From an uncultured bacterium (GTDB lineage: Bacteria; Verrucomicrobiota; Kiritimatiellia; PWTM01), in assembly GCA_963744655.1 (NCBI GenBank), contig CAVUUJ010000001.1, positions 335,835 to 399,834 on the forward strand: a stretch of 64,000 bases of DNA, in the 5' to 3' direction. The notes under the pieces were generated by a model. That model was given only the letters and a program-made list of their open reading frames with translations. It ran no database searches and was not told where the DNA came from. How positions within the stretch are numbered: position 1 is the first letter of the stretch; every line of letters begins with the position of its first letter. Made by a program: the position numbers and the translations under genes. Below are positions 237 through 6,209 of this stretch, in pieces.

Positions 237-1533
237 CTAGCTCAACTTGCCGATGATGGAAATCATGGGGAGGAAGAGCGCGATGACGATCGTGCCCACC
301 ATCATGGCCAGGCCGACGATGAGCAGCGGTTCGATGATGGAGGTGAGGGCCGCCACCGCGTTGTCCACCTCGTCGTCGTAGTTGTCGGCGATGCGCATGA
401 GCATGTCCGGCAGGCGCGCCGGTTTCCTCGCCGACCTCGACCATGCTGACGACCATGGGCGGGAAGATGCCCGAGGCCTCGATGGGCGGGGCGATGTTCT
501 CGCCTTCCTTCACGCGTCGTGGACGAGCGTCACGCCGCGCGCGATGACCTCGTTGCCGGACGTGTCGCGCACGATGTTGAGGGCCTGGAGGACGGGCACG
601 CCGGAGGTCATCAGGGTGCCCAGGGTGCGGGTGAACCGCGCGATGGCGGTCTTCTGCACCAGCGGCCCGAAGATGGGCATGCGCAGCTTGATCGAGTCGA
701 GGACCAGGCGCCCCTTCGCGTTGCGGGCCACGGCCTTGAGGAGGAAAACGAGCACGACGAGGCCGGCGAGCACGTAGGGAGTGCGCTTCACGAACAGGTT
801 GCTCGTGTTCATGACCAACTGGGTCAGCGCCGGCAGCTGGGCGCCCTCGAGCAGGTCTTCGAAGATCTCCGCGAACTTCGGCACGATGTAGGTCATCAGG
901 AAGGACATGATGCCGCCGGCGACGCAACAGGACGACGATGGGGTAGATCATCGCGCTGACGACCTTGTTCTTGATCTTCTGCGCCTTCTCCATGAACTCC
1001 GCGAGGCGGGTGAGCACGACGTCGAGCACGCCGCCGATCTCGCCGGCCTTCACCATGTTCACGTACAGCCGGTTGAAGATCTTGGGGTGCTGGGACATGG
1101 CCTCCGCAAGGGTGCTGCCCGACTGGATGGCCTCGGCCAGCTCGTTCATGGTGCGTTTGAGCCGGGGGTGCTGCTCCTGTCGCTCGATGACCTGCAGGCC
1201 GCGCAGCAGGGGCAGCCCCGCGTCGATCAGCGTGGCGAGCTGGCGCGTCACGATCATGAGCTGCTTCGGCTTGACCCGGCCGCCGCCGAACAGGACGGGA
1301 ACATGGATCTCCTTCTTCAGGCCGCCCTGGGCGGCCCCCTGCGCCCGGCGGCCGCGCGGCCGGGAGGGCGACTTGGCCTTGCCCGGCTTGCCGGCGCCGG
1401 CCTCGACGACCTCGGTGGGGAACACGCCCTTTTCGCGGATGCGCCCGATCGCGGCGTGCTGGTTCTCGGCCTCGACGGTGCCGCGCACCTCCTTGCCCTT
1501 CGCATCCAGCGCGGTATAGGCAAACGTCGCCAT
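237..1533 (-). pseudogene. GspF/PilC-family inner-membrane platform protein; frame broken by at least 3 single-base indels (possible assembly error)
   Basis: Pieces in three frames join into one GspF/PilC protein. They read [22 protein letters not shown] (ATG 1533, GGAG upstream) ... [14 protein letters not shown] / [21 protein letters not shown]...GNEVIAR..VHDA / [32 protein letters not shown] / [17 protein letters not shown]...[12 protein letters not shown]-stop. Breaks lie near 930, 497 and 415. Confidence 0.85.
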
Positions 1534-1596
1534 GTCTCCACGCTCCTCTCGTCGTTCCGGCCGCGCGGGGCGCCCGGAGGGCCCCCCTCGCCGGGC

Positions 1597-3344
1597 TCAC
1601 GTATACTTCAGCACTTCTTCCACCGTCGTGTAGCCGTCGAGGATGCAGCGGATGCCGTCCTCGCGCAGGGTGCGCATGCCCATCTCGACCGCCTTGTCGC
1701 GGATCACCAGGGTCGGCTTGCGCTCGTTGATCAGGTCGCGGATGGGGTCGGTGATGCGCAGGTACTCGAAGATGCCGCGGCGGCCCGCGGTAGCCGGTCT
1801 CGTTGCACTGCGCGCAGCCGGCGCCGTAGTAGAACGGCCGGTCGCCGACGTCCGCCTGGCTCGAGGCCGAGCTGCTGGAGCGATGTCCGGCGTCCGGCTG
1901 GTACGCCGTCTTGCAGTGCGGGCAGATGGTGCGCACCAGGCGCTGGCCGAGCACCGCCTCCAGGGTCGAGGCGATCAGGAACGGCTCCACCCCCATGTCG
2001 ATCAGGCGGGTGATCGCGCCCGGCGCGTCGTTGGTGTGCAGCGTGCTGAACACCAGGTGGCCGGTGAGCGAGGCCTGGATGGCGATCTCGGCGGTCTCCA
2101 GGTCGCGGATTTCACCGACCATGATGATGTCCGGGTCCTGGCGGAGGAAGGCGCGCAGCACGCGGGCGAAGGTGAGGCCGATGGCCTCGTTGACCGGGAT
2201 CTGCATGATGCCTTCGATGTCGTACTCGACCGGGTCCTCGGCGGTGAGCAGCTTGCTCTCGATCTTGTTGATGCGGCGCAGCGCGGAGTACAGCGTGGTC
2301 GTCTTGCCCGACCCGGTGGGCCCGGTGACGACGATGATGCCGTTGGGCTTGGTGATGTCGTAGGCGAACGTCTCGTAGATGTCGTCCGGGCATGCCGAGG
2401 TTTTCGAGGTCCAGCTGAGACCACGCTCCGGTCCAGGACACGCAGCACCACGCTCTCGCCGAACTGGGTGGGCAGGGTGGAGACGCGGAAGTCGACGGTG
2501 CGGCCGGCGATGGTCAGCTGGATGCGGCCGTCCTGCGGCAGGCGGCGCTCGGCGATGTTCAGCCCGGAGATGACCTTGATGCGCGAGGTGACGGGCAGGG
2601 CCAGGTGCTTGGGCGGCGGGGCCATCTCGTAGAGCGCGCCGTCCACGCGGTAGCGGATCTTGAACTCGTTCTCGAACGGCTCGAAGTGGATGTCCGAGGC
2701 GCGGTCCTGGACCGCCTGGTAGAGCACCAGGTTCACGAACCGGATGACCGGGCGCCTGGTTGCGCCATCTGCTCGAGCTCGATGGTCTCGCTTTCCTCGC
2801 TCGTGCGGCAGGTCGAGGAGGTCCCCCGCCTCCTCCAGCTCGGACTCGAGCGCGGAGAGCATGTCGCCGACCGACTCGCTGATGTTCCCGTAGCAGGTCG
2901 ATGATGGAGCGCTTGACATCCTGCTGCCGGGCCACGACGTAGGTGATGTCGCGGGTGAGCACGAAGTTCAGTTCGTCGATCACCTCGGGGCTGAGCAGCT
3001 CGGACGTGGCCAGGGTCACCGCGTTGCCCTTCGCGCGCGATCGGCACCACGTTGTACATGCGCGCGACGCTGGCGGGGATCGATCGTGCGACGGCTGCGG
3101 GGATCCGCGGGCTCGGCGGCGAGGTCGACCACGTCCGTGCCCATCTGGCGGGCCGATCGAGCTCGAGCAGCTCGTCCTCCGAGAGGACCTCCATGTCGAT
3201 GAGCAGCTCGCGCACGGACTTGCCGGTGCGTTCGTGCTCCTCCATGAACTCCTCGGCCAGCTGCTCGGTGACCAGGCCCTCGGCCAGCACCTGCTGCGAG
3301 CAGGTAGTCCTTCCGCACGACTTCGGGCTTTCGGCGTCGGCCAT
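1597..3344 (-). pseudogene. GspE/PilB-family secretion ATPase; about ten frame switches by hand count (possible assembly error)
   Basis: Walker [13 protein letters not shown], Walker [27 protein letters not shown], tetracysteine CPHC...CAQC, and C-terminus [16 protein letters not shown]...EEVLKYT-stop. The N-terminus has a T2SSE_N-like segment ([29 protein letters not shown]). The fragments are spread over all three minus frames, for example an extra G in a GGG run near 1790 and an extra G near 2393. Confidence 0.85.
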
Positions 3345-4431: not shown

Positions 4432-4462
4432 CTGCAGATGTCGTGCGGACTTCGATGCGTCA

Positions 4463-6209
4463 TCAGTCTCGGTCTCCCATGGTTACCCGGAACACTTCTT
4501 CCAGCGTGGTGATCCCGCCACCACCTTGCGCAGCCCGTCTTCGCGCAGGGTGCGCATGCCCAGTTCGCGGGCCTGGGCGCGCAGTTCCGCTGGCGGTCAC
4601 CTGCTCGAAGATCATGTGCCGCACCTCGTCGTCGATCACGAACATCTCAAAGATCCCATCCGGCCCCGGTAGCCGGTCACGTTGCACTCCGCGCAGCCCT
4701 TGCCCTGGTACAGCGTGGCACTCGGCGACCTGCTCGGCCGCCGGGCCCGAGCAGGCGCAGCTCCGTGTCCGTCCGGCGTGTGCTCCTCCTTGCACTCGTC
4801 GCAGATCTGCGCACCAGCCGCTGGGCCATGATCGCCCGGGTGGAGGAGGCCACCAGGAACGGCTTCACCCCGATGTCGATCAGGCGGGTGACGGCGCTGG
4901 GCGCGTCGTTGGTGTGCAGGGTGCTGAACACCAGGTGGCCGGTCAGGGAGGCGTTGACCGCGATCTCCGCCGTCTCCATGTCGCGGATCTCACCGATCAT
5001 GATGATGTTGGGCGCCTGGCGCAGGATGGAGCGCAGGGCGGCGGCGAAGGTCAGGCCGATGTCGGCGCGGACCTGCACCTGGTTGATGCCGGAGAGCTGG
5101 TACTCGACCGGGTCCTCCACGGTGATGATCTTGCGGTCCGGCTGGTTGATGCTGGTTCAGGCAGGCGTACAGGGTGGTGGTCTTGCCCGAACCGGTCGGG
5201 CCGGTGACCAGGATGATGCCGTCCGGCAGCGCCGATCAGCCGCTCGAAGGTCTGCTGGTCGTCCGAGAAGAACCCGAGCTGCGGCAGCCCGAGCATCAGG
5301 CTCTCCTTGTCCAGGATACGCATGACGACGCTCTCGCCGTGGTTGGTGGGAATGGTCGGAAACACGCAGGTCGAGGTCGCGGCCCATGACGTTGATCTGG
5401 ATGCGGCCGTCCTGCGGCACCCGCTTCTCCGCGATGCTCATGTTGGCCATGATCTTCACGCGGCTGATGATGGCCGACTGGAGGCGCTTGGGCGGGCTCT
5501 CCACCTCGTGCAGCACGCCGTCGATGCGGTACCGCACCCGGAACTTCCGCTCCAGCGGCTCGAGGTGGATATCCGAGGCGCGGCTGCGGAAGGCCTCCAG
5601 GATGATCAGGCTGACCAGCTTGATGATCGGGGCGTCGGACTCGGTGATCGTCCTCGTCGTCGCCGATCAGCGTCCTCGCGGCCTCGGCCAGGCATCGCCA
5701 CCGATCCCTCGGTGATCTCCTCGAGCATCGACTCCACCGTCGCCGTCGACCTGCGGGTAGTACTGGTCGAGCGCGACGTCGATCTCCTCGGCGGCGCCAC
5801 CACCCCTTCGACGTTGGTCTTCAGGATGTAGCGCAGGCTGTCGAGGGTCTCCACGTCGAGCGGGTCGCTGAGGGCCACCGTCAGCGTGCTGTCCGTGCGG
5901 TAGACGGGCACGACTTGTAGCGGCGGGCGACGTCGGCGGGCACCAGGTCGATGCACCTCCTGGGCGATGTCCAGGCCGGTCAGGATGATGCGTCTCCATC
6001 CCGAACTGGTTGGCCAGGGCCTTCAGGATGTCGATCTTGGGAAGCCCCGTGTTGCGGACGAGCACGTCGATGACGTCCTTGTCCTCCTGGCGCGACGAGT
6101 GAAGGGCCTCCTCGCCCTGCTTCCGGTTGATGAGCCCTACGCCTTCGAGGATCTCCACGATGTACTCGTCGTTGGCTGTCAAATCGCGTGCTCCTGCGTC
6201 GACGGGCAT
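4463..6209 (-). pseudogene. Second GspE/PilB-family ATPase; multiple frame switches (possible assembly error)
   Basis: N-terminus MPVDAGARDLTANDEYIVEILEGVGLINRKQGEEAL...ILKALANQFGMET (T2SSE_N-like). Further pieces read [60 protein letters not shown] and [72 protein letters not shown]. The tail is GITTLEEVFRVT. The pieces lie in different minus frames. Confidence 0.85.

Follow-up and report, generated by a model that had tools for sequence, protein, structure and literature searches.

A cluster of four pilus/secretion genes, at positions 237-6209 of a 64,000-nucleotide stretch of DNA from an uncultured Kiritimatiellia bacterium (contig CAVUUJ010000001.1, positions 335,835 to 399,834; hereafter, the window), is interrupted by dozens of one-base frame changes. 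Considered as a whole, these frame breaks appear, with a probability of about 0.95 or higher, to be an artifact of the consensus sequence and not mutations of the organism, and, judging from the sequence, the four genes are almost certainly intact and selected for in the living cell. An artifact is preferred over decay because the same damage is found in essential genes, relaxed constraint is not detected, the pattern across the genome is bimodal, and the completeness estimated from marker genes is low. An earlier note on this DNA had likewise favored a localized consensus or polishing error over decay. That preference is now supported by the damage to essential genes, the lack of changes at invariant residues, the confinement of the breaks to blocks, and the low completeness, each described below.

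The minus strand of 237-6209 comprises four genes, each readable only via changes of frame, followed by the start of a fifth gene:

4463..6209, minus strand: ATPase1, a GspE/PilB-type assembly ATPase, with 16 frame-changing indels and Pfam T2SSE matches on its fragments.
3352..4431, minus strand: PilT/PilU-family retraction-type ATPase, with 9-11 frame-changing indels and a Pfam T2SSE match on a fragment.
1597..3344, minus strand: ATPase2, a second GspE/PilB-type ATPase, with 11-12 frame-changing indels and Pfam T2SSE and MshEN matches on fragments.
237..1533, minus strand: GspF/PilC platform protein, with 3 frame-changing indels near 925, 516, and 414.
1..192, minus strand: first part of a gene for a prepilin/pseudopilin with the N-terminal methylation motif, running off the window, with no frame break seen.

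The T2SSE matches lie on ATPase fragments in several frames, with E values down to 4e-78, and PF00482 (T2SSF) is found on two fragments of the platform gene in different frames. Read through the shifts, the ATPases show Walker A, the Asp box, the His boxes, and both CxxC pairs intact, in line with the earlier remark that the Walker, His, and Cys motifs had been preserved. Consequently, the features that define ATPases of type II secretion systems and type IV pili are present (PF00437 T2SSE, Walker A, Asp box, Walker B, His box, and the tetracysteine motif in the GspE/PilB type), as are the two T2SSF repeats and the length of about 400 residues that define GspF/PilC. The orthologues in a relative carry the NCBIfam names GspE/PilB, PilT/PilU, GspE/PilB, GspF/PilC, and GspG-like, the last being the gene that adjoins the platform orthologue. 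The ATPase1 orthologue scores 643.4 bits on the GspE model (cut-off, 630.25) and just under the PilB cut-off, the ATPase2 orthologue scores 626 bits on GspE (cut-off, 630), and the PilT orthologue belongs to TIGR01420 pilT_fam (457.8 bits; cut-off, 319.1). Over its full length, the platform orthologue aligns to both the GspF and PilC models, but with scores under their equivalog cut-offs. The prepilin was called from a match to Pfam N_methyl, located at residues 450-476 in the translation of the minus-strand frame 1..1533. For window positions 1-6300, the best hits among proteins and loci carry the labels Kiritimatiellia, Verrucomicrobiota, or Lentisphaerae (relatives L002-L008 and L128-L207), and the family shares the conserved order GspE/PilB, PilT, GspE/PilB, GspF/PilC, pseudopilins, in which PilT lies between two assembly-type ATPases.

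The frame breaks were counted by frameshift-aware protein-to-DNA alignment against the intact orthologues of one relative of the same family (locus L004). This yielded 39 frame changes of one base each (16 in ATPase1, 9 in PilT, 11 in ATPase2, and 3 in the platform gene), made up of 28 extra and 11 missing bases, in genes whose amino acid identity to the orthologues is 72-80% (446/566, 289/363, 433/575, and 298/414 identical codons, respectively). The 16 shifts of ATPase1 lie near 5991, 5954, 5914, 5791, 5738, 5682, 5359, 5230, 5151, 4807, 4764, 4748, 4725, 4658, 4588, and 4514, and ATPase2 has an additional compensating +2/+1 pair at 1890/1862. A nucleotide alignment (MAFFT) with seven relatives gave 43 indels private to the window with a length that is not a multiple of three, versus 0-6 in each relative. 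By gene, and in the same order, this nucleotide alignment holds 16, 11, 12, and 4 indels (one of them an in-frame +3), plus 1 intergenic indel. All four genes are intact in the seven relatives, and the nucleotide identity of the cluster to them, 76-79%, is the normal inter-genus range in the family. The G+C content is 72-75% across the window and 67-68% in its first 6 kb.

Thus, the statement in the earlier note that four consecutive genes could be read only by hopping between frames was borne out by both kinds of alignment, while its hand count of at least two dozen one-base indels proved to be an underestimate. The individual examples given there were recovered within a few bases: the extra G in a GGG run near 1790 is at 1786, an extra base expected near 2393 is at 2390, the base lost near 497 corresponds to a missing base at 514-516, and the +1/-1 pair near 3690/3625 is at 3680 and 3613-3615.

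In sequences decaying under relaxed selection, the indels would be accompanied by substitutions and stops. The aligned codons of the four genes hold no in-frame stop in the frameshift-aware alignment, with 1 to 10 new stops expected across the four genes under decay; a single TGA occurs near 5682, inside an insertion patch of 7 nt that could not be placed in the alignment. Furthermore, ATPase1 was read through its shifts, with X at ambiguous codons, and searched in a collection of 5.8 billion proteins. The resulting protein matched at least 120 intact proteins, most of them labeled Kiritimatiellia/Verrucomicrobiota, with 76-81% identity and 99-100% of its length covered, and is changed at none of the 218 columns that are invariant in 120 homologues. 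One substitution per indel would predict 4.6 changes at these columns (probability of zero, 0.01), and ten per indel would predict 46. Neither conserved-residue substitutions nor premature stops are found as signs of relaxed selection, and the damage consists of short indels with no surplus of substitutions or stops.

The damage is likewise not limited to dispensable functions but extends, to an equal degree, to indispensable single-copy genes for transcription, translation, replication, and secretion. The largest blocks of frame breaks in the assembly lie at 295-313 kb of contig C2, in the tuf/ribosomal-protein/rpoB/rpoC/fusA region (locus L109, C2:295001-313000). Compared with a relative's proteins, rpoB has 31 frame changes, rpoC 39, fusA 21, and rplB 9. 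Together these four genes contain 88 insertions and 12 deletions, at an amino acid identity to the relative of 69-78%. Since no cell could live with rpoB and rpoC so shredded, the damaging process is not biological, and the process that hit these two genes is the same as in the pilus genes, with equal density and spectrum. Further top blocks cover gyrB, a class II glutamine amidotransferase, carB, a class I aminoacyl-tRNA synthetase, a PEP-utilising enzyme, an Mrp/Nuo antiporter subunit, a V/A-ATPase subunit, PDH E1, and SecA; other examples are C2:467032-471765, C1:416874-421839, and C1:248676-254946. The 23S rRNA gene (C2:579689-582661, minus strand) has 11 private insertions and 2 private deletions versus 0-2 of each in six relatives. 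It is 12-29 nt longer than theirs and has the lowest Rfam score of the seven. These private insertions indicate that the indel noise extends to an rRNA gene.

The assembly to which the window belongs comprises 3.03 Mb in 4 contigs, from a bacterium with 72-73% G+C, and its marker completeness is 65% versus 94-98% in relatives of similar size. To quantify frame breaks over all of it, a codon log-odds model trained on 962 long open frames was run with a seven-state Viterbi decoder, counting as a switch any same-strand frame change more than 30 nt ahead of the stop of the old frame. The scan unveiled 1,605 frameshift-like switches, or 5.3 per 10 kb, versus a control rate of 0-1.4 per 10 kb in 40-120 kb stretches of four high-G+C relatives; a fifth control, with 45% G+C, was not decodable with the model and was uninformative. 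Thus, a genome-wide surplus over comparable genomes goes together with depressed completeness. Under self-trained models, two of the relatives (G008:C19 and G002:C3, loci L089-L099) gave 1.2-1.4 switches per 10 kb versus 0-0.3 in G004 and G024; the higher values may come from false calls of the model or from a small amount of true assembly error.

The distribution of the switches over 5-kb bins is bimodal: half of the bins hold none and a quarter hold 3-27 (variance/mean, 8.4). Clustering gathers 85% of the switches into 134 blocks (median, 1.4 kb; maximum, 10 kb) that together make up 7.9% of the genome. Within blocks the density of detected switches is 5.7 per kb, and outside them it is 0.87 per 10 kb, the control level. 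The window repeats this pattern and shows that the patchiness described in the earlier note is real, with 25 switches in 414-5990, none in the 11.4-kb gene, and only isolated events beyond two small clusters:

15350..15951, minus strand: second dirty patch, with switches at 15350, 15654, and 15951, in the part of the hox hydrogenase cluster where conservation is highest.
29406..30417, minus strand: third dirty patch, with switches at 29406, 30048, 30306, 30365, and 30417, in putative uppS and purA.

The stretch at 15350..15951 has the highest identity to relatives, 82%. The breaks in putative hoxH (14861-16316) and in uppS/purA (28851-30896) are probably assembly errors and do not indicate a dead hydrogenase or dead essential genes.

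As for the cause of the artifact, we lean, with much less assurance than for the artifact itself, toward a consensus built from mixed, diverged populations. In the assembly, the 134 gene-sized blocks, about 8% of the sequence, carry 6-10 spurious indels per kb, chiefly one-base insertions, and the remainder is as clean as the short-read assemblies of relatives. The blocks coincide with the genes of highest conservation, among them the pilus/secretion cluster and its three strongly conserved ATPases, and it may be only there that reads from different members of the community would align together. A consensus or polishing step over such genes would then have been fed with reads from more than one diverged population, and at sites where the populations differ, mostly wobble positions, both alleles or neither may have been written, giving a +1 or -1 shift.

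The sequence context of the indels provides modest signals for such a mixed-sequence consensus. When compared with simulated random insertions passed through an identical pipeline, the inserted base beside a wobble position equals the alternative allele of relatives in 36 of 115 insertions (16.4% in the simulations; p = 6e-5), and 53 of the 115 fall at the junction between codon positions 3 and 1 (34.9% in the simulations; p = 0.009). Placement at this 3|1 junction is strong in the pilus cluster (18/28; p = 0.0014). Moreover, indels inside blocks are more common where relatives differ (rho = -0.35 with local conservation; p = 2e-4).

Other sources of error were considered and rejected in whole or in part. 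Pure homopolymer error was discarded since fewer than half of the single-base insertions lengthen a run (12/28 in the pilus cluster and 32/87 in the rpo region). A basecalling error linked to methylation or a motif (GATC, GCATC, CCWGG) was also discarded, as the sequence around the 43 sites (within 8 nt) shows enrichment of no 3- or 4-mer (highest z, 2.6, with GATC outside the top). At the 5-kb scale, GATC count does correlate with dirtiness (rho, 0.40), a coarse relationship that codon usage in conserved genes probably accounts for. That dirtiness simply tracks nucleotide identity to the family relatives is only partly true: the 82% hox core is dirty, but so is a stretch at 72%, and one at 78% is clean. 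Of the two sub-causes that the earlier note had offered, recruitment of reads from a mixed population over conserved genes is thus the better fit, given the preference of the indels for sites variable among relatives, while its homopolymer or GC-doublet error fits the context of the insertions less well.

Several observations weigh against the explanation given here. The bias toward the 3|1 junction is weak in the larger rpo set (35/87; p = 0.18). As the phase test is significant in the pilus set and not in the rpo set, the mixed-allele idea draws mainly on the alternative-allele and local-conservation tests. Within the window, the clean stretch of 78% identity (about 31.2-32.5 kb) and the dirty uppS/purA patch of about 72% are not what a simple dependence on conservation would give. 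Finally, a near-identical independent assembly was not found in the collections searched, from which records very close to this genome may be missing, the best amino acid identities being 63% among JGI metagenome contigs, 65% among GTDB species genomes, and 81% in the 5.8-billion protein collection. The artifactual origin of any single indel is therefore something we infer from sequence.

An artifact of another origin, in which stretches of an insertion-prone long-read consensus were left uncorrected and no alleles were mixed, is a serious competitor, although we hold it to be the less probable of the two causes. Such stretches could arise from long-read gap fills that join accurate short-read contigs in a hybrid assembly, from a short-read polisher declining to act, or from homologue-guided polishing with relatives that are too distant, a kind of polishing that exists as a method (PMC8011154). 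In its favor, the blocks are gene-sized and sharply bimodal, and the errors are nearly all indels, substitutions at invariant residues being absent. Insertions outnumber deletions by 3:1 to 9:1, which, together with inserted bases that resemble the base composition, is also reminiscent of uncorrected long-read consensus, and the lack of a significant codon-phase bias in the rpo set fits as well. Against it, errors scattered at random in raw reads would be indifferent to codon phase and conservation, whereas here the alternative wobble allele is inserted at twice the simulated frequency and indels are denser at positions that vary among relatives. A separate reason would also be required for the uncorrected stretches being conserved genes.

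The explanations that place the indels in the organism are far less probable than either kind of artifact. A real and very recent pseudogenization of the pilus/secretion system in this lineage is very unlikely, even though pilus genes are non-essential in many bacteria and the damage in the first 6 kb of the window is dense and limited to one functional cluster. It would leave unexplained the equal or denser damage in rpoB, rpoC, fusA, rplB, gyrB, and secA, the 218 unchanged invariant residues despite 16 shifts in one gene, the lack of stops in aligned codons, and the four intact genes of the seven relatives. Bacterial pseudogenes have an established deletional bias, and the insertion excess seen here is the opposite. 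More improbable still is the reading that the indels are truly in the DNA, with about 1,600 sites recoded or edited by an unknown bacterial mechanism, or its weaker form, that the pilus cluster alone recently died on top of the assembly noise. Least probable of all is a reading in which the extra bases exist in the DNA and the most conserved genes are nonetheless expressed correctly, through pervasive programmed ribosomal frameshifting or through RNA editing. The encoded proteins do look perfectly conserved once read through, but the sites share no slippery or motif context, no relative has a shift at any of them, and more than 1,600 sites would be required; we know of no recoding system of such extent in bacteria. 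In addition, the insertion excess of the rRNA gene is beyond the reach of any translational bypass.

A consensus artifact, preferred here, is consistent with what has been described for long-read (meta)genome assemblies, where indel frameshifts split genes and lower marker completeness (PMC8103633; proovframe preprint, 10.1101/2021.08.23.457338; PMC9262707) and where low completeness at high contiguity is a known signature of indel-ridden metagenome genomes (PMC8103633). As in those assemblies, one-base indels break well-conserved genes, a completeness of 65% is combined with only 4 contigs, and protein-guided read-through restores the frames. Unlike the usual long-read indel errors, the errors in this assembly are restricted to its most conserved genes, about 8% of the sequence, are not mainly bound to homopolymers, are biased toward insertions, and favor sites variable among relatives; a description of this pattern of confinement, insertion bias, and variable sites was not found in the cited literature on long-read indels. 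The several frameshifts per gene across a whole functional cluster also resemble pseudogene decay in host-restricted or recently niche-shifted bacteria, which differs from the present case in its accompanying substitutions and stops, in sparing essential genes, in a spectrum where insertions do not outnumber deletions, and in the state of the relatives, intact here. Compared with the corresponding clusters of Verrucomicrobiota/Kiritimatiellia, the one studied here has the same order and content as those of the seven relatives, with proteins 72-81% identical, and differs in consensus quality only and in nothing biological.

It is important to consider that the cluster is an ordinary conserved gene set of Verrucomicrobiota/Kiritimatiellia, and the finding has no biological importance in itself. 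Its value lies in quality control, as this assembly represents its species in a one-genome-per-species collection. Broken genes, pseudogenes, fusions, and lost pathways read from it are suspect, including putative hoxH, purA, and uppS, and any such call would first be checked against the map of 134 blocks. Since the errors concentrate in conserved genes, the genome, nearly contiguous as it is, is far more complete than its marker completeness of 65% suggests. The error signature, in which insertions are found in conserved genes only and at variable wobble sites, may also help to spot mixed-population consensus errors without the reads.

Outside the blocks, isolated single switches were found in the window at 9391, 10403, 11551, 42885, and 63705. 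These occur at the control rate of about 1 per 10 kb and may each reflect a false call by the codon model, a lone error in the consensus, or a junction of overlapping genes.

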